37,691 nucleotides of DNA from a virus (taxonomy: Duplodnaviria; Heunggongvirae; Uroviricota; Caudoviricetes): positions 1-37,691 of IMG/VR virus record IMGVR_UViG_2751185969_000015, one strand, 5' to 3'. The number at the start of each line of letters is the position of its first letter. The stretch's first letter is position 1. Shown here one piece after another: positions 25,675 to 31,874 of this stretch. Below the pieces are notes generated by a model. It searched no databases. It saw only the letters and a list, made by a program, of their open reading frames with translations, and was not told the origin of the DNA. The translations under genes and the position numbers were made by a program.

Positions 25675-25746
25675 GATTTACCCTCCCCCAAATAAAAAGG
25701 CCTGCGATTACCAGCAGGCCTGTTATTAGCTCAGTGATGTAGATGG

Positions 25747-26037
25747 TCATCTTTTAACTCCATATACCGCCAATATCCGTTTCATCGTGGCACTCTGGCG
25801 ACACTCCTTAAAAATCAGGTTCGTGCTCATCTTTCCTTCCCGTTCTTCCTTGGTAGCAAACCGGTAATACACCGTTCGCCAGACCTTACCTTCGATAACC
25901 AGAAGACCTGCCCGTGCCATTTTAGCCGCGGCCTGATTTATGCTGGTTACTGTTGCGCCTGTTAGCGCGGCAACGTCCGGCGCACAGAAGCTATTATGCG
26001 TCCCCAGGTAATGAATAATTGCCTCTTTGCCCGTCAT
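25747..26037 (-). CDS. ren: Ren protein
   Basis: MTGKEAIIHYLGTHNSFCAPDVAALTGATVTSINQAAAKMARAGLLVIEGKVWRTVYYRF... matches lambda Ren; overlaps the P stop. Confidence 0.85.
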   Translation of the reverse strand: MTGKEAIIHYLGTHNSFCAPDVAALTGATVTSINQAAAKMARAGLLVIEGKVWRTVYYRFATKEEREGKMSTNLIFKECRQSATMKRILAVYGVKR

Positions 26038-26735
26038 ACACTTGCTCCTTTCAGTCCTAACTTAGCTTTAATTTCTGCGATCTTCGCCAGCGCCTGAACA
26101 CGATTTAGAGGTCTGCCGCCCATGACAGGAAGTTGTTTTACTGGTTCAGGTATCGTCTCACCACGGTTAATTCGCGCTGTCATACAGGTCAGTTCATCGG
26201 CAGCCTTGCGTCGTAATTCCGCGTCAGTCAGCGCATTGGCCCGCATGTTCTGGTACAGGTTGGTAACCAGCCAGTAGTGCGCGTTCGATTTCCACGGATA
26301 AGACTCTGCATCCGGATACAGGCCTCGCTTCCGGCAATACTCGTAAACCATATCAACCAGCTCGCTGACGTTTGGCAGTCCGGCGATAACGGATGCTTCT
26401 TCCCGGCACCATGCAACAAACTGCCCGGGTGATGGCAGAAATGGTCGATTCTGCCGACGGGCTACGCGCATTCCTGCGTTAACCTGTTCCATTGTGGTGA
26501 TCCCGTTTTCCCGGAAAGCCAGAACCCACTGGCGGCGGATTTCGTTCAGTTCGTTCTGGTCACGGTTAGCCAGACTCGCCGGGAAAGTTGCCAGTAACTG
26601 GCTGAACACACCGTTGATGATCTGCGCTACCTGCTGTACCTGCGGCTTTTCGTCGTACTGTTCCGGCATGTTGTTGGCGATCCGACGCATCTGCTCACGG
26701 TCAAAATTAACCATCTGTGCGGCGATGTTTTTCAT
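26034..26735 (-). CDS. P: Replication protein P (DnaB helicase loader)
   Basis: MKNIAAQMVNFDREQMRRIANNMPEQYDEKPQVQQVAQIINGVFSQLLATFPASLANRDQNELNEIRRQW... matches lambda P. Confidence 0.9.
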   Translation of the reverse strand: MKNIAAQMVNFDREQMRRIANNMPEQYDEKPQVQQVAQIINGVFSQLLATFPASLANRDQNELNEIRRQWVLAFRENGITTMEQVNAGMRVARRQNRPFLPSPGQFVAWCREEASVIAGLPNVSELVDMVYEYCRKRGLYPDAESYPWKSNAHYWLVTNLYQNMRANALTDAELRRKAADELTCMTARINRGETIPEPVKQLPVMGGRPLNRVQALAKIAEIKAKLGLKGASV

Positions 26736-27631
26736 AAATCCACCCCGTAAATCCAGTCAGTGTTTGTCAGGTCGAGTTTTGGTTTGCAGGCTGTCACACC
26801 TGCCTGTTGCTTGTTACGGTTGATTTCGAGCTGGGTCCACTTGTCGCGGAGTTTGGCCGGGCTCAGCACGTTACCGGACCAGAAGTTGTCCTGGCATGCC
26901 CAGCGGAACAGTACACACATGTCGCGATGGTTACGTCCGTCACGTTCACGCATCAGGCGGATATCGTTAGCCCACCCTGCAAAATTCGGTTTTCTGGCTG
27001 ATGGCGCGATGGTCTTCACCATGTCAAACATCCATTCTGCGGCGGTCAGGTCTTCTGCTGTCCCCCACTTGCTGCCGCTCTGAATTGCAGCATCCGGTTT
27101 CACCACAGAAAGGTCGTTTTCTGGCTGGTCAGAGGATTCGCCAGAATTCTCTGACGAATAATCTTTTCTTTTTTCTTTTGTAATAGTGTCTTTTGTGTCC
27201 CCCTGTTTTGAGGGATAGCAATCCCCCAATTTGAGGGATGTTTTATCCCTCGTTTTAGGGGATTTTCCCTCGTTTTGAGGGATACACCATTCTGAGATGT
27301 TTTTATTTGGTCCAAACATGCCGCCTTGCTGCTTGATAATATTCATTCTGACGAGTTCTAACTTGGCTTCATTGCACCGTTTGACGGGTAACTTTGTAAT
27401 CTCGCTAAGTTGAGAATCGGTGATTCTGTCCATTGGTTTATTCCATCCATAGGTTTTACGCAGAATGGCAAGCAGCACTTTAAACTGTCGCTTGGTCAGA
27501 TCTGCGCCTGAATAAGCCTCAAGCAGCATATTTGATAGTCTGGCGTAACCATCATCGAGATCTGCCACATTACGCTCCTGTTTGGCAAAGTTACCTCTGC
27601 AGAAGTTGAGTATTTTTGCTGTATTTGTCAT
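26732..27631 (-). CDS. O: Replication initiator O
   Basis: MTNTAKILNFCRGNFAKQERNVADLDDGYARLSNMLLEAYSGADLTKRQFKVLLAILRKTYGWNKPMDRITDSQL... matches lambda O; contains the ori iterons. Confidence 0.9.
   Translation of the reverse strand: MTNTAKILNFCRGNFAKQERNVADLDDGYARLSNMLLEAYSGADLTKRQFKVLLAILRKTYGWNKPMDRITDSQLSEITKLPVKRCNEAKLELVRMNIIKQQGGMFGPNKNISEWCIPQNEGKSPKTRDKTSLKLGDCYPSKQGDTKDTITKEKRKDYSSENSGESSDQPENDLSVVKPDAAIQSGSKWGTAEDLTAAEWMFDMVKTIAPSARKPNFAGWANDIRLMRERDGRNHRDMCVLFRWACQDNFWSGNVLSPAKLRDKWTQLEINRNKQQAGVTACKPKLDLTNTDWIYGVDL
27197..27286. repeat. ori-lambda: four iterons inside the O gene, with adjacent AT-rich region
   Basis: Four approximately 18-bp repeats of the type CCCTCAAAACGAGGG (plus-strand forms CCCCTGTTTTGAGGGA, CCCCCAATTTGAGGGA, CCCTCGTTTTAGGGGA, CCCTCGTTTTGAGGGA), flanked at 27150-27185 by an A/T-rich tract. 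Confidence 0.85.
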
Positions 27632-27663
27632 AATGACTCCTGTGGATTGATCCAGTAATGACC

Positions 27664-27960
27664 TCAGAATTCCATCTGGATTTGTTCAGAACGCTCAGTT
27701 GCCGCCGGGCGTTTTTTATTGGTGAGTCCATCAAGCGCATACTTAAAAGCCCTGCTAATCGGACTGATGTCTGATGCCATTCCGAAAGCACACAAGACCG
27801 AAGCAATAAATCTCCAGTCCGTTCTGCTTATCTTCGATTCATGACAGCCAATCATCTTTGCCAGACCGCGCTGGGTAATAGCTGACAGATTGATAAGTAA
27901 ATCTGTTTCTGCGCGATCAACGTCACGCTGTGATAGTTTGCTGTAACTTGTTCTTTCCAT
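27664..27960 (-). CDS. cII: CII-like transcriptional activator (hybrid: lambda-type C-terminus, divergent N-terminus)
   Basis: C-terminus ...LTNKKRPAATERSEQIQMEF matches lambda CII; the N-terminal 75 aa differ. Located between cro and O. Confidence 0.75.
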   Translation of the reverse strand: MERTSYSKLSQRDVDRAETDLLINLSAITQRGLAKMIGCHESKISRTDWRFIASVLCAFGMASDISPISRAFKYALDGLTNKKRPAATERSEQIQMEF

Positions 27961-28045
27961 TTCTTAAGATTTCCAATAGTGAATAGTTAGTTGAAAGGTA
28001 TGCGTGGAAACGCATATGGCCTTAGTTGGTCAGATATCTTGGAAC

Positions 28046-28092
28046 TCGCTTTTCAGCGACGTAGGACGAATGTCCGTTGTTACAAAGAGCGG
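28046..28092 (-). promoter_or_regulatory. nutR candidate (boxA plus boxB)
   Basis: On the minus strand, downstream of cro: boxA-like CGCTCTTTGTAA (28081-28092), then about 20 nt later a hairpin TCGCU-GAAA-AGCGA (28046-28059). Its core matches the nutL hairpin. Confidence 0.55.
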
Positions 28093-28101
28093 ATCCGCTT
28101 A

Positions 28102-28317
28102 TTAAGCGGCTTTGTGTTCCGGCGGGAACACGTCATCAAGACTGACTTTTGCGCCTAACTTGTTTAGGCACGCAACAAGAGCACGGCATGTTTTAAGGTC
28201 TGGGAAGCGACGACCAGATTCCCAATGTCCGATAGCTCCCTGTGTGCATCCAACTGCCTTAGCAAGTGTTGTTTGAGAGATATTCAGTGACTCTCGATAT
28301 TTTCGTAGGTTGCTCAT
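28102..28317 (-). CDS. cro: Cro-like repressor (XRE-family HTH)
   Basis: Start at internal ATG (28315-28317) with GGAGGG RBS: MSNLRKYRESLNISQTTLAKAVGCTQGAIGHWESGRRFPDLKTCRALVACLNKLGAKVSLDDVF... Divergent from cI. Confidence 0.75.
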   Translation of the reverse strand: MSNLRKYRESLNISQTTLAKAVGCTQGAIGHWESGRRFPDLKTCRALVACLNKLGAKVSLDDVFPPEHKAA

Positions 28318-28434
28318 ATGCCCTCCATAGTAAACACGAATAAAAAAATACAATATGTACTTTGCGAATACAAGTAAAAATACACATTGTGCATGGATGG
28401 TTCCAGTACAGAGCGTAATAATAAGGACATGAAA
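28318..28434. promoter_or_regulatory. cro-cI intergenic control region (OR with PR/PRM)
   Basis: 117-bp AT-rich spacer between divergent cro and cI. Contains TACA...TGTA-type near-palindromes (for example TACAATATGTA), similar to motifs in the PL region. Confidence 0.6.
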
Positions 28435-29088
28435 ATGAAATGGTATGAACTGGCTAGATCCAGAATGAAAGAGCTCGGCATAACTCAAGAGAAGTTAGCC
28501 GAAGAGCTAGGTATGACGCAGGGTGGGATTGGACACTGGTTGCGCGGATCTCGTCATCCATCTCTTAGTGATATTGGTGTGGTGTTTAAATACCTTGGTA
28601 TTGATAACATATCATTCAACCACGACGGGACATTTTCACCTGTTGGCGAATACTCATCGGCCCCAGTTAAAAAACAATATGAGTACCCTGTATTTTCTCA
28701 TGTTCAGGCTGGGATGTTCTCTCCAGAACTCAGAACCTTTACCAAAGGCGATGCGGAGAGATTGGTAAGCACAACCAAAAAAGCCAGTGACTCTGCATTC
28801 TGGCTTGAGGTTGAAGGTAACTCAATGACCGCACCAACAGGTTCCAAACCCAGCTTTCCTGACGGGATGTTAATTCTGGTTGACCCTGAGCAAGCTGTTG
28901 AGCCCGGCGATTTCTGCATAGCCAGACTTGGTGGTGATGAATTTACCTTCAAGAAACTGATCAGGGATAGCGGTCAGGTGTTTCTACAGCCACTAAACCC
29001 ACAATACCCAATGATCCCATGCAATGAGAGTTGTTCCGTTGTGGGGAAAGTTATCGCCAGCCAATGGCCTGAAGAGACGTTTGGGTGA
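28435..29088 (+). CDS. cI: CI repressor (hybrid: novel N-terminal HTH domain, lambda-type C-terminal S24 domain)
   Basis: C-terminal roughly 130 aa match lambda CI ([135 protein letters not shown]), including catalytic Ser and Lys. The N-terminal domain ([42 protein letters not shown]...) is unrelated to lambda CI. Start chosen at the second ATG (28435) for RBS spacing. Confidence 0.85.
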
Positions 29089-29127
29089 TGAAACCACTTT
29101 TATCTACAATTTACAGGGCGGTAAACA

Positions 29128-29685
29128 TTGGCAAAAATAGATGATTATCAGCCAAGCCAAGTAGAAGTTGATAAAGTACTTTATTGTAAAAAAATAGTTA
29201 ACTTTTCTGGCGTTAAATGGAAACAGAAACCAAGTCGCTCTGATATGTGGCTACAAGCCCATATCATCCCCTTGGATGAGGATTGTATACCTATACAAGG
29301 GCTAAAGTTTGAACTGAAATGGAAACCAGATCAGGATTCAGAACCTGATGACCCGATTTCTTACCCTAAAATAAATATTATTGCTTTCTATCATAACAAG
29401 AGGGTTTTCGCGGTAGATACCTATCACTTTGACAAACACACGAATAGTTACAAGGTCGATCATCCGAAGTACCAAGATATCATTTACGGTGCTCACTACC
29501 ATGTATACTATGAAGAAGCTGGATACTATAGTGATAGAATAGCGTTTCCAATCGAAGATGACATAAACCCAGATGACCTGGTAGGGTATTGGAATTACTT
29601 CTGTAAACATCTGAACATAACTTACTCTGGGAGAATACCTTTACCGCTTGAAGATGAGTCGGGGCAAATGGGGTTTGGAATATGA
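29128..29685 (+). CDS. Hypothetical protein A of the cI-linked two-gene cassette (TTG start predicted)
   Basis: 185-aa ORF (MAKIDDYQPSQVEVDKVLYCKKIVNFSGVKWKQ...YHVYYEEAGYYSDRIAFPIEDDINPDDLVGYWNYF...), AT-rich. Starts 40 nt after the cI stop with no intervening terminator. Tyr/His/Asp-rich; no family recognised. Confidence 0.55.
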   Translation: MAKIDDYQPSQVEVDKVLYCKKIVNFSGVKWKQKPSRSDMWLQAHIIPLDEDCIPIQGLKFELKWKPDQDSEPDDPISYPKINIIAFYHNKRVFAVDTYHFDKHTNSYKVDHPKYQDIIYGAHYHVYYEEAGYYSDRIAFPIEDDINPDDLVGYWNYFCKHLNITYSGRIPLPLEDESGQMGFGI

Positions 29686-30434
29686 TGTGCTCAACAGTGA
29701 TCTCACAACTAGGTTTCGAATGCCATCCAATAGGCAAGACCTTGAGAATTATCAGTCCATTCACTTACTGTGATGATGGAGAGCATGTCGGTGCCTTTAT
29801 CCGTGAAGTCAATGGTAGGTATTTAGTTAGTGACAGATGCGATGCCTTAATGAATATGGAGGCAAGAGGGATCTCGCTTACCAAAAAACGACTTGATGAG
29901 ATACGACAATTACTGCTTAAAGAAGGCGCAGAACTCAATGCTCGAGGAGAAATCATTGCTTGGGCAACAGAAAAGGATGTCGGTGCGATTACATCGAACA
30001 TAATTAGAGCTGGTATACTCGCATCAACTTTGTCGTTAGACTGGTATCAGCCAGTTCAAGCTGAAAAGTTTGAAAGTATGGTTATTGATTATCTATATCA
30101 CACAGAGCTTAGAGACGCACTTTCTCTTCGTGAAAACGTATATGGCTTGAGTGGACATCAAATTACCGTCCCTGTAACAATAAAAACCGACATACCTAAA
30201 TACGTTTTTACATCAAGCGTGAAACACGGAGGAAGCTGGAATAGTGCTTACTCATTGCTTGGGAAACTAATTGATCTTAAAGCTTCAAGTGAGGAGTATA
30301 ACAACAGATTTGTTGTTATAGACAGCGAAGCAATTGGTGATCAAATGCAACAACTCTCCTTACTCTTCCATGAATCAAGCCAAGTTCTACCATTCTCCAA
30401 AAGAGAGACTTGGGTTAAGAGACTTGCAGCATAA
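29682..30434 (+). CDS. Hypothetical protein B of the cI-linked two-gene cassette
   Basis: 250-aa ORF whose ATG overlaps the stop of protein A (ATGA); AT-rich; no family recognised; followed by a strong terminator. Confidence 0.6.
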   Translation: MMCSTVISQLGFECHPIGKTLRIISPFTYCDDGEHVGAFIREVNGRYLVSDRCDALMNMEARGISLTKKRLDEIRQLLLKEGAELNARGEIIAWATEKDVGAITSNIIRAGILASTLSLDWYQPVQAEKFESMVIDYLYHTELRDALSLRENVYGLSGHQITVPVTIKTDIPKYVFTSSVKHGGSWNSAYSLLGKLIDLKASSEEYNNRFVVIDSEAIGDQMQQLSLLFHESSQVLPFSKRETWVKRLAA

Positions 30435-30439
30435 TACAA

Positions 30440-30465
30440 CCCGGCCTCAGCGCCGGGTTTTCTTT
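30440..30465 (+). terminator. Rho-independent terminator closing the cI operon
   Basis: Perfect hairpin CCCGGC-ctcagc-GCCGGG followed by TTTTCTTT. Confidence 0.8.
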
Positions 30466-30638
30466 GCCTCACGTTCGCCCACCTAAAAACACATAACCAA
30501 TTATATTTATTGAAAAATAAATAGATGCAACCCACTAAACCACGCAATTCTGATCTCTCCTTACATCGCCGAGGCAATACATCCACGCTAAAAAACAACA
30601 CTATTAAATACAAAGCGTTATAAAAAACCACGCCAACT

Positions 30639-30681
30639 TACAACAAATTGTATTGATCTTGTAAAGTACATATCGTACTAT
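30639..30681 (+). promoter_or_regulatory. PL-like early leftward promoter with OL-like operators
   Basis: TTGATC (30653-30658), 17-bp spacer, TACTAT (30676-30681). Overlapping palindromes TACAACAAATTGTA (30639-30652) and TTGTAaagTACAA share half-sites with the cro-cI region. Confidence 0.55.
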
Positions 30682-30726
30682 TTAACCGTCAGCAGGACGC
30701 TGGAAGCCAAATGGAACAGACTGGCA

Positions 30727-30772
30727 GGCTCTTTAAACAACGTCGACTCTCGACTACGTGGCTGAAAAGCCA
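30727..30772 (+). promoter_or_regulatory. nutL candidate (boxA plus boxB)
   Basis: boxA GGCTCTTTAAACAA (30727-30740), then a hairpin TGGCU-GAAA-AGCCA (30759-30772), upstream of N. Confidence 0.6.
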
Positions 30773-30870
30773 GATCACCCAACCACATAAGCTGTGGGAT
30801 GCAATGCCGAAGCAACCGTCTCAGGAGGAGCTTCGAGATTGCATCGCCAAAGTTTATTCGGGAGGAATCC

Positions 30871-31143
30871 ATGTCCAGAAAAACAGAATTTAAAGGCACC
30901 GCAGCTTCTCGCCGTAGAGCTCGTCGCGCAAATCTGCAAAGTCAGGAGGCGATCAGCTCCGACAAGCTACACAGGCCAACCCCTTCACGAGTGGTCTTGC
31001 AATGCAAGCTCAAACCAGCAATGAGAGCAGAAGTGATAACTCTGACAACGTTGACCAGAAAATATGAAGGTTCAACTTGTCTTCCGAACGTAGCTCTTTA
31101 CGCGGCAGGCTACCGGAAATCAAAACAACTGACGGCGAGATGA
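30871..31143 (+). CDS. N: Antiterminator N (P22 gp24-like)
   Basis: Start at ATG 30871 with GGAGG RBS. Arginine-rich motif near the N-terminus (TAASRRRARRANLQ). C-terminus ...LPNVALYAAGYRKSKQLTAR matches P22 gp24 as I recall it. Confidence 0.8.
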   Translation: MSRKTEFKGTAASRRRARRANLQSQEAISSDKLHRPTPSRVVLQCKLKPAMRAEVITLTTLTRKYEGSTCLPNVALYAAGYRKSKQLTAR

Positions 31144-31159
31144 TAAATTCATTTGCTAA

Positions 31160-31741
31160 TTACTTGTTTTTGCCATGCTTATCCTGAGCGATAAGTTCAT
31201 CCATAAGGCTGTCTGCCTTCCCGGCAAACCTAATGTAGCACTCATGTCTATAGCTTTCAGGGATAACGAAACGGTCGGTATCAGGATATCCAACAGCAGG
31301 AGGCCTTCGAACGAGGAGTCCTTTTTTGAGCAATGAAATTGATTCATGAGCGCCCTTTTCCGTTTGTAGCTGGTTATTAGCGGCTACAGCGAATGCCAAA
31401 TACGCTCTTTCTCCAAGAGTTAACGAATCAAACAAATCTTGCACATATTTTTCTTCTTTAGATTTGCGCTTCTGAGCAGCGAATACCTCAATTCTTTCAG
31501 TCACAGCGTGATAAGCGGAATTAACAACGCCGTTAAGCACATAGCTAACGCAAAACAACAGGATGTAATACATCCAGTAATGAGGAAGGATTTCTGGATT
31601 ATGCAGGTTTATCCATTCTTTTACGCTTACCGGCATAACAATAATCAATATGATCAGGATGATTAGCATATGAATCAACTGTTTAAGTGTCATTCCTTGC
31701 AGGAAAAAATGCATTAGTTCCTGCCACCATGAGTTGTTCAT
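31160..31741 (-). CDS. sieB: Superinfection exclusion protein B (SieB)-like membrane protein
   Basis: MNNSWWQELMHFFLQGMTLKQLIHMLIILIILIIVMPVSVKEWINLHNPEILPHYWMYYILLFCVSYVLNG..., which I recall as the lambdoid SieB sequence; two N-terminal TM helices; on the strand opposite to N. Confidence 0.65.
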   Translation of the reverse strand: MNNSWWQELMHFFLQGMTLKQLIHMLIILIILIIVMPVSVKEWINLHNPEILPHYWMYYILLFCVSYVLNGVVNSAYHAVTERIEVFAAQKRKSKEEKYVQDLFDSLTLGERAYLAFAVAANNQLQTEKGAHESISLLKKGLLVRRPPAVGYPDTDRFVIPESYRHECYIRFAGKADSLMDELIAQDKHGKNK

Positions 31742-31874
31742 CGGCGTTTCTCTTTTGCTCTCTGTAGGGGTGAATAGAGTTTATCCGATTTCTCGTTGTA
31801 GGGGTACACGAGAACCACCGAGCCTGAAGACAGGCACAATCTTTACTACCGCAATCCACTATTTAAGGTGATAT

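Follow-up and report, generated by a model that had tools for sequence, protein, structure and literature searches.

The locus at 28318-29088 of the stretch of DNA analysed here (37,691 nt, hereafter the window) raises the question of whether it encodes a recombinant immunity specificity built by domain swapping, as an earlier note had proposed, or one that has been described before. The two parts of that proposal fare differently: an exchange at the linker between the two domains of the CI repressor is supported, but the implied novelty is not, and on its sequence the immunity type is an already known and ordinary one.

Layout of the immunity region and its regulatory proteins

The orientation of the window is the reverse of the conventional lambda map, and the immunity region with its flanking genes is laid out as follows:

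26034-26735, minus strand: P
26732-27631, minus strand: O, 99% amino acid identity to lambda O
27664-27960, minus strand: cII (Pfam Phage_CII)
28102-28317, minus strand: cro, 71 aa (Pfam HTH_3)
28318-28428: cro-cI spacer, containing OR
28429-29088, plus strand: cI, 219 aa, with an HTH_3 domain and linker (28429-28677) and a lambda-type S24 peptidase/dimerisation domain (28678-29088)
29128-29685 and 29682-30434, plus strand: cargo ORFs of 185 aa and 250 aa in the rexA/rexB position
30438-30459: intrinsic terminator 3' of the cargo ORFs
approximately 30600-30690: OL/PL region
30871-31143, plus strand: N antiterminator of non-lambda type (Pfam N_peptide, E 1.5e-32)

Intact ORFs are present for cI, cro, cII, N, O and P. 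The structural genes of the element are P22-like, and the element is a P22-like mosaic phage or prophage carrying lambda-type replication genes. Its N has a local identity of just 33% to lambda N, and lambda rexAB is replaced by the two cargo ORFs, which are probably co-transcribed with cI and lie outside the immunity specificity. The interval 28318-29088 does contain cI, but its first part (28318-28428) is OR, and coding probably begins at 28429. This is the most likely start codon, in place of the annotated ATG at 28393, because relatives do not conserve the added stretch from 28393, which also overlaps both OR2 and the -35 element of the maintenance promoter PRM.

CI consists of an N-terminal HTH_3 domain (residues 11-58, E 1.9e-10) and a C-terminal Peptidase_S24 domain (PF00717, E 1e-28), and it matches the PDB entries 3bdn, 8gmu and 1f39, with lambda repressor at E 3e-96. 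The 151/212 identities between CI and lambda CI (BLASTP) are unevenly distributed. Residues 84-219 equal lambda residues 102-237 save for one Trp-to-Leu change (135/136), so that the near-identity of the C-terminal part noticed at the outset extends over 136 residues with a single difference. In the DNA, identity to lambda cI is 93.2% in 28678-29088 versus 43% in 28429-28677, and it falls to approximately 29% past the stop codon. The codon differences in the C-terminal domain (27 synonymous, 1 non-synonymous) point to strong purifying selection.

The N-terminal domain, which the earlier note regarded as unrelated to that of lambda, is strongly divergent (approximately 20% global identity) but nevertheless a homologous HTH_3 domain: the BLASTP alignment continues across the helix-turn-helix, and when searched alone the domain gives a weak match (E ~5e-4) to lambda repressor N-terminal structures. 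It is without lambda's N-terminal arm and helix-5 segment, and its recognition helix reads QGGIGHWLR versus QSGVGALFN in lambda. Thus, the N-terminal domain is a distant homologue of lambda's, yet of a different specificity class. The cleavage site (Ala94-Gly95) and the catalytic residues Ser132 and Lys175 are intact and aligned with their lambda counterparts (residue numbers here are 18 below lambda's Met-inclusive numbering), in keeping with what had been said of the catalytic Ser and Lys; because the C-terminal domain equals that of lambda at 135 of 136 residues, RecA*-stimulated autocleavage and SOS induction are predicted.

Cro was also correctly recognised as non-lambda, being an HTH_3 protein for which BLASTP gives no alignment with lambda Cro. 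Its identity is approximately 50% to PDB 28tn and 35% to the N-terminal domain of CI, of which it is a paralogue; the recognition helices read TQGAIGHW (Cro) and TQGGIGHW (CI). CII has the mosaic structure previously ascribed to it, with its first 78 residues of the Stx1-phage/HK022 type, its last 20 residues identical to lambda, and an identity to lambda CII of approximately 30% outside these 20 residues; the junction to lambda-type DNA lies at approximately 27726, from which lambda identity runs into O.

Operators, promoters and the predicted switch

Six predicted 17-bp operators, three at OR and three at OL, share the motif xAxTACA-N3-TGTAxTx:

28346-28362: OR1, AAATACAATATGTACTT, overlapping the putative PR -10; equal to a putative operator of AP005153; kept in relatives
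28378-28394: OR2, AAATACACATTGTGCAT, equal to an AP005153 operator; kept in relatives
28404-28420: OR3, CAGTACAGAGCGTAATA, overlapping the putative PRM -10; equal to an AP005153 operator; kept in relatives
30606-30622: OL3, AAATACAAAGCGTTATA, 1 nt different from an AP005153 operator feature
30639-30655: OL2, TACAACAAATTGTATTG, containing the palindrome at 30639-30652; the AP005153 feature, TAGAACAAATTGTATTG, differs by 2 nt
30664-30680: OL1, AAGTACATATCGTACTA, equal to an AP005153 operator feature

With the full position weight matrix, these are the six highest scores in the whole window, OR1 being the best; with a leave-one-out matrix built from the other five sites, every site ranks 1-13 of 37,675 positions, and OR1 ranks first. 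The strict core ANTAC-N5-GTANT is seen four times versus 0.36 expected, with three of the four in OR/OL. The six sites, derived independently here, are the same as the six 17-bp putative operators annotated in the Stx1 converting phage (AP005153), four of them being identical. The lambda operator consensus (TATCACCGC, versus xAxTACA here) has no match with three or fewer mismatches in OR or OL, and its total in the window is at chance level, which bears out the earlier description of the operators as non-lambda. Of the TACAA/TTGTA-type palindromic half-sites said to be shared by the OR and PL regions, the motif is real, but the register is instead that of the 17-bp xAxTACA site. The 14-bp palindrome given as an example (TACAACAAATTGTA) is present at 30639-30652; as an operator unit it was rejected, being out of register with the other five sites and not conserved (the Stx1 phage carries TAGAACAAATTGTA in its place).

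The same arrangement is found in the loci of four relatives: L008 (C-terminal domain 57% identical), L009 (N-terminal domain 82% identical), L010 (N-terminal domain 61% identical) and L011 (N-terminal domain 49% identical, recognition helix SQGALSHWLNG). In every one of them the cro-cI spacer holds three sites placed as in this element, with TAC and GTA invariant, and the three OR sites of L008 are the top three matrix scores of its whole contig. Three OR sites are kept together with the same recognition helix even where the C-terminal domain is just 57-65% identical, and the operators evidently follow the N-terminal domain, as judged from these alignments.

The other predicted control sites are the following:

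27938-27951, plus strand: candidate CII-binding repeat of PRE, TTGC-N6-TTGT, within the 5' part of cII and oriented towards cI
28046-28091, minus strand: putative nutR, by analogy with lambda, with boxA CGCTCTTTGTAACAA (28091-28077) and a boxB hairpin TCGCTGAAAAGCGA (28059-28046)
28345-28373, minus strand: putative PR, placed by eye, with -35 TTGTAT (28373-28368), a 17-nt spacer and -10 TATTTT (28350-28345)
28394-28422, plus strand: putative PRM, with -35 TGGATG (28394-28399) and -10 AATAAT (28417-28422)
30653-30681, plus strand: putative PL, placed by eye, with -35 TTGATC, a 17-nt spacer and -10 TACTAT
30728-30772, plus strand: putative nutL, by analogy with lambda, with boxA GCTCTTTAAACAA and a boxB hairpin TGGCTGAAAAGCCA

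PR, PRM and PL have weak hexamers, and all three were missed by a consensus promoter scan with a threshold of 9 of 12; they were placed by eye with the support of conservation. The TTG of the putative PR -35 (CAAG on the plus strand) is invariant in six loci, the putative PRM elements CATGGAT and TAATAAT are conserved in L008-L011, a maintenance promoter is annotated at the PRM position in AP005153, and the Stx1 phage has TTGACC at the PL -35 position. PRM transcription is predicted to start near the A of the ATG at 28429, so that the cI mRNA would, like that of lambda, have no leader, and the centre of OR2 lies at approximately -43 from this predicted start, matching the geometry for activation in lambda (OR2 at -42). 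The candidate PRE repeat (TTGC-N6-TTGT) differs slightly from that of lambda (TTGC-N6-TTGC).

Most likely, these components form a switch between CI and Cro in the manner of lambda, in which RecA stimulates cleavage at Ala94-Gly95 (Ser132/Lys175); its binding, promoter positions, cooperativity and cleavage are predicted from homology and geometry. CI, a two-domain LexA-family repressor, would bind the six 17-bp operators as dimers through its HTH_3 domain, blocking PR and PL from OR1/OR2 and OL1/OL2 respectively and probably stimulating the leaderless PRM transcript from OR2 (at approximately -43), while the overlap of OR3 with the PRM -10 would make negative autoregulation possible. Cro, with nearly the same recognition helix, would compete for CI's operators. 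By homology, the CI C-terminal domain would provide dimerisation, dimer-dimer cooperativity and RecA*-stimulated self-cleavage, so that cleavage at Ala94-Gly95 would bring about SOS induction of the prophage at the level of the repressor. The candidate nutR, nutL and PRE repeat would complete a lambda-like circuit.

Lambda has in common with this region the cleavage site, the Ser/Lys dyad, the gene order, the three plus three 17-bp operators, the probable leaderless PRM transcript and the lambda-type O (99% identity). The region is nonetheless not imm-lambda, for its N-terminal domain, operator consensus and Cro are all non-lambda, lambda Cro being of a different fold class from the HTH_3 Cro found here. 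Phage 434 and P22 (c2) likewise combine an HTH_3 N-terminal domain that is short and all-helical with a Cro paralogous to the repressor's DNA-binding domain and similar to it in recognition helix, but the sequence similarity of their proteins to CI and Cro of this element is marginal (E 0.01-0.5). The operators of 434 (ACAA-N6-TTGT, 14 bp) and the 18-bp site of P22 are both unlike the operators described here.

The centre-to-centre spacing of the operators (OR1-OR2, 32 bp; OR2-OR3, 26 bp; OL1-OL2, 25 bp; OL2-OL3, 33 bp) differs from the 20-24 bp of lambda. Since OR1-OR2 is at 32 bp versus 24 bp in lambda, lambda-style cooperativity between OR1 and OR2 is not assured. The long OR gap is 34 bp in L008 and L009, where the short gap is still 26 bp; the lambda-like close pairs are OR2-OR3 (26 bp) and OL1-OL2 (25-26 bp), with OR1-OR2 at 32-34 bp. 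It seems unlikely, taking both proposals jointly, that the switch is wired unlike lambda's despite possessing its cooperativity domain and that, separately, this CI forms mixed oligomers with the CI of lambda-immunity phages. If pairwise cooperativity follows spacing, CI would fill OR2 and OR3 together, turning PRM off early and keeping repressor levels low, and early PRM shut-off, if true, may be a basis for the easy induction of carrier Stx phages. Mixed dimers or higher oligomers of the two CI proteins, which the 135/136-identical C-terminal domain could allow, would, if they form, couple the stability of heteroimmune prophages.

Origin of the two-part repressor

Whatever the details of the lambda-style switch, its repressor combines two domains with different histories of identity to lambda, and the break between them at 28678 is abrupt. 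All 776 E. coli genomes that carry the specificity-determining DNA have the N-terminal domain joined to a lambda-type C-terminal domain, and approximately 427 more E. coli genomes match no part of the query before position 577 (28678 of the window); three of these loci, which match in the C-terminal domain only, were sampled, and all are plain imm-lambda. Among 120 homologues from a search of 5.8 billion proteins, the N- and C-terminal identities (%) are uncoupled (78/57, 51/85, 20/99 and 28/85). The same recognition helix is found with C-terminal domains that are 99%, 79-85% and 57-65% identical to that of CI, and in the same search a family of N-terminal domains (70-83% identical, with the same recognition helix) occurs with divergent C-terminal domains. 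Conversely, C-terminal domains that are at least 80% identical are associated with at least four N-terminal classes: that of this CI, a relative with approximately 51% identity, that of lambda, and an HTH_19 class (212-215 residues).

Exchange at the inter-domain linker is thus supported by the sequence comparisons, and recombination at the linker is preferred to unequal divergence because the identities of the two domains are uncoupled and the synonymous sites of the C-terminal domain are preserved. The exact N-terminal domain was not found on another C-terminal domain in the phage collection, and the comparisons point to no single donor and to no one direction of exchange. That the region instead descended vertically from a lambda-like ancestor, with the N-terminal domain and operators diverging fast under immunity selection while the C-terminal domain stayed constant, is highly improbable. 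The homology of both N-terminal domains as HTH_3 members and the purifying selection on the C-terminal domain (27 synonymous versus 1 non-synonymous differences) would fit such a history, but the synonymous sites of the C-terminal domain have also hardly diverged (93% nucleotide identity), identity drops at 28678, over a few bases, to 43% and is approximately 29% past the stop codon, N- and C-terminal identities vary independently across homologues, and the same breakpoint recurs in the approximately 427 E. coli genomes, of which the three sampled are imm-lambda.

The near-identity to lambda in the 3' half of cI, and from the 3' end of cII through O, would result from homologous recombination at module junctions, and the shuffling of CI domains is an instance of general lambdoid mosaicism. 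Hybrid repressors in which a heterologous DNA-binding domain was joined to a lambda or P22 C-terminal domain were reportedly made by the Hochschild laboratory in the 1990s. The CI of this element follows the same logic (specificity in the N-terminal domain, cooperativity and cleavage in the C-terminal domain), but unlike the engineered hybrids it arose in nature, is found widely and has co-evolved with its operators.

Assignment to an immunity type

Comparison of positions 27960-29100 with phage sequences (megablast) identifies 62 phage records that span most of the region with 98.4-99.9% identity, including ev207, ev017, PhiR57_1, 2G7b, Stx2a_WGPS8, 2851 and the PA series as well as Nil2 (AJ413274), the Stx1 converting phage (AP005153) and Stx2 phage II (AP005154). 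When the N-terminal domain alone was compared with phages, a check suggested in the earlier note as a way to find the donor type, the known VT2-Sakai/Stx1-phage group was returned: 56 phage records carry exactly the same N-terminal 83 residues, VT2-Sakai matches them at 98.8%, and the next nearest N-terminal domains in the phage collection are 52-57% identical (Salmonella SPN9CC/ST64T-like, Erwinia and Vibrio). CI (100%) and Cro (71/71) are identical to their AP005153 counterparts. The region is common to VT2-Sakai (Sp5), AP005153, Stx2 phage II, Nil2, 2851, 1717, YYZ-2008 and the PA phages, and the VT2-Sakai/Stx1-phage group has 96.5-99.9% DNA identity across cro-OR-cI; ev207, ev017 and PhiR57_1 are non-Stx phages that share the immunity region. 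The Stx phages differ from this element in having an HK022-like cII tail and O, which are lambda-like here, and in having different genes in the interval between cI and OL.

Of 5426 complete E. coli genomes, 776 (14%) carry the specificity-determining DNA (28102-28680), among them those of the type strain ATCC 11775, Nissle 1917, UTI89, NU14, APEC O1 and many O157:H7 strains. In Nissle 1917 (prophage 3), identity is 99.93% over 25683-31765, cargo genes included. What Bury et al. studied as the 'phage repressor' of this Nissle prophage corresponds to cII, not to cI. Many E. coli strains carry prophages of both kinds, with the CI type described here and with lambda immunity.

The repressor type has been classified as Clade I, with 61% overall identity to lambda CI (Llarena et al., PMC8951638), Nil2 is one of the eight lambdoid regulatory regions used by Glinkowska et al. 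(PMC2903704), and the Sp5 CI serves as a reference in a study of STEC (bioRxiv 10.1101/2024.03.06.583675). In electrophoretic mobility shift assays, lambda CI bound the six 17-bp operators of VT2-Sakai at 3.7-6.4 uM and its own operators at 0.2-3 uM (Sedhom and Solomon, PMC10742460). A literature search found no study that purified this CI and footprinted it on the operators of its own phage, and the GenBank operators are labelled 'putative'; the status of the type as characterised rests on annotation, comparative work and the SOS-inducibility of the Stx phages that carry it.

Thus, the immunity region is very probably the described VT2-Sakai / Stx1-converting-phage / Nil2 / 2851 type, a standard lambdoid one, and the implied novelty fails on the earlier note's own terms because the N-terminal domain and the operators match one described immunity group, with CI and Cro 100% identical to those of AP005153 and coinciding operators. 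It is scarcely credible that the region is a decayed, non-functional remnant whose repressor controls nothing: Nissle 1917 prophage 3, with an essentially identical region, was reported to be non-inducible (Bury et al., PMC5987069), which defects elsewhere in that prophage could explain, but all six genes (cI, cro, cII, N, O and P) have intact ORFs here, the six predicted operators and the nut sites are all present, the same alleles occur in the plaque-forming phages ev207, ev017, PhiR57_1 and 2851, and the substitution pattern is that of purifying selection. A new recombinant specificity made by domain swapping outside any described group has a negligible probability, for although the boundaries to lambda-type sequence are genuine and sharp, phages sequenced long ago (AP005153, AP000363, AJ413274, FM180578 and others) have the same or nearly the same CI, Cro and operators, the type is present in 14% of complete E. 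coli genomes, and it is a published reference (PMC8951638, PMC10742460, PMC2903704).

The region described here, assigned to the VT2-Sakai/Stx1-phage type, is a textbook case of modular exchange in lambdoid phages, its exact alleles occurring in dozens of phages and hundreds of E. coli genomes. The practical value of the analysis lies in annotation: the likely start codon of cI is corrected, and the immunity of the element is assigned to the Sakai/Stx1-phage group, which predicts homoimmunity between the element and important Stx phages, and heteroimmunity to lambda. The one point of some research interest is the geometry of cooperativity at OR.

The cII junction and the surrounding element

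The element (window 12700-37691) is a P22-like podovirus mosaic whose portal, coat and scaffold genes resemble those of CUS-3, Kapi1 and phiv205-1, and which bears lambda-type O and P genes; its immunity region is of the Sakai type. Neither the phage nor the E. coli records include one that covers 80% of window 12700-37691. The lambda-identical CII tail (window 27664-27726) is particular to this element with its lambda-type O: in the Stx1-converting phage AP005153 (L001 3205-3270), which has the same cI and cro, the CII tail is HK022-like (ITKKKSPAATEDFKQIDMQF), and O is also HK022-like. Thus, the recombination at the cII junction is an event distinct from that in cI.

Primers have been published for the "phage repressor" of E. 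coli Nissle 1917 prophage 3 (pr, EcN_1294; PMC5987069), and these map to the cII (27664-27960) region of the window, not to cI:

27746-27763, pr qPCR primer
27988-28006 and 27636-27657, pr cloning primers

Plating of lambda and of Stx phage was reported to fall roughly 200-fold with Nissle pr (PMC5987069); since the primers fall on cII, the decrease attributed to pr may be an effect of CII over-expression.

The cI and cro genes

The cI start annotated in RefSeq and GenBank (ATG 28393, giving 231 aa) falls within OR2 and the -35 element of the putative maintenance promoter PRM. Among loci encoding CI relatives, the upstream extension that this start would add (window 28393-28428) is broken by a stop codon in L010 and absent from L011. 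The true start is probably 28429, on a leaderless mRNA. The original VT2-Sakai record (AP000363, L003 3091-3093) has TAG in place of the CAG of the window, the codon for the Gln that opens the CI recognition helix, and the cI annotation in AP000363 is truncated because of this replacement, which could be either a sequencing error or a genuine amber mutation. Residues 1-69 of Cro (window 28102-28317) are approximately 50% identical (E 4.5e-17) to PDB 28tn, an 82-aa "lambda repressor-like protein" that could act as a structural template for this Cro.

Operator spacing and operator-like sites

The predicted operators are asymmetrically spaced at both OR (window 28346-28420; OR1-OR2 32 bp, OR2-OR3 26 bp) and OL (window 30606-30680; OL1-OL2 25 bp, OL2-OL3 33 bp). 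Of the two OR gaps, the longer varies, being 34 bp in the CI-relative loci L008 and L009, while the shorter is constant at 26 bp. Further operator-like sequence lies beyond OL:

31554-31582, two overlapping operator-like 17-mers, AACAACAGGATGTAATA and TAATACATCCAGTAATG, within a SieB-like ORF (31160-31741, minus strand)

These 17-mers hold ranks 7 and 11 by matrix score in the window (first and third outside OR and OL, with a site at 2338 intermediate), and one of them fits the strict core ANTAC-N5-GTANT. The pair may be due to chance or may be an additional CI/Cro site.

Cargo genes between cI and OL

The position of rexA and rexB is occupied by other genes:

29128-30459, plus strand, two overlapping ORFs between cI and OL

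A comparable ORF pair is located downstream of cI in an imm-lambda prophage (L006). The two-ORF unit of the window is closed by a strong terminator. The 185-aa product has a weak match to DUF6978 and also matches PHROG 2017 and PADLOC PDC-M24A (E 5e-4), and the 250-aa product matches DUF1828, PHROG 1960 and PADLOC PDC-M24B (E 5e-10). The two ORFs are a candidate defence pair expressed from the prophage.
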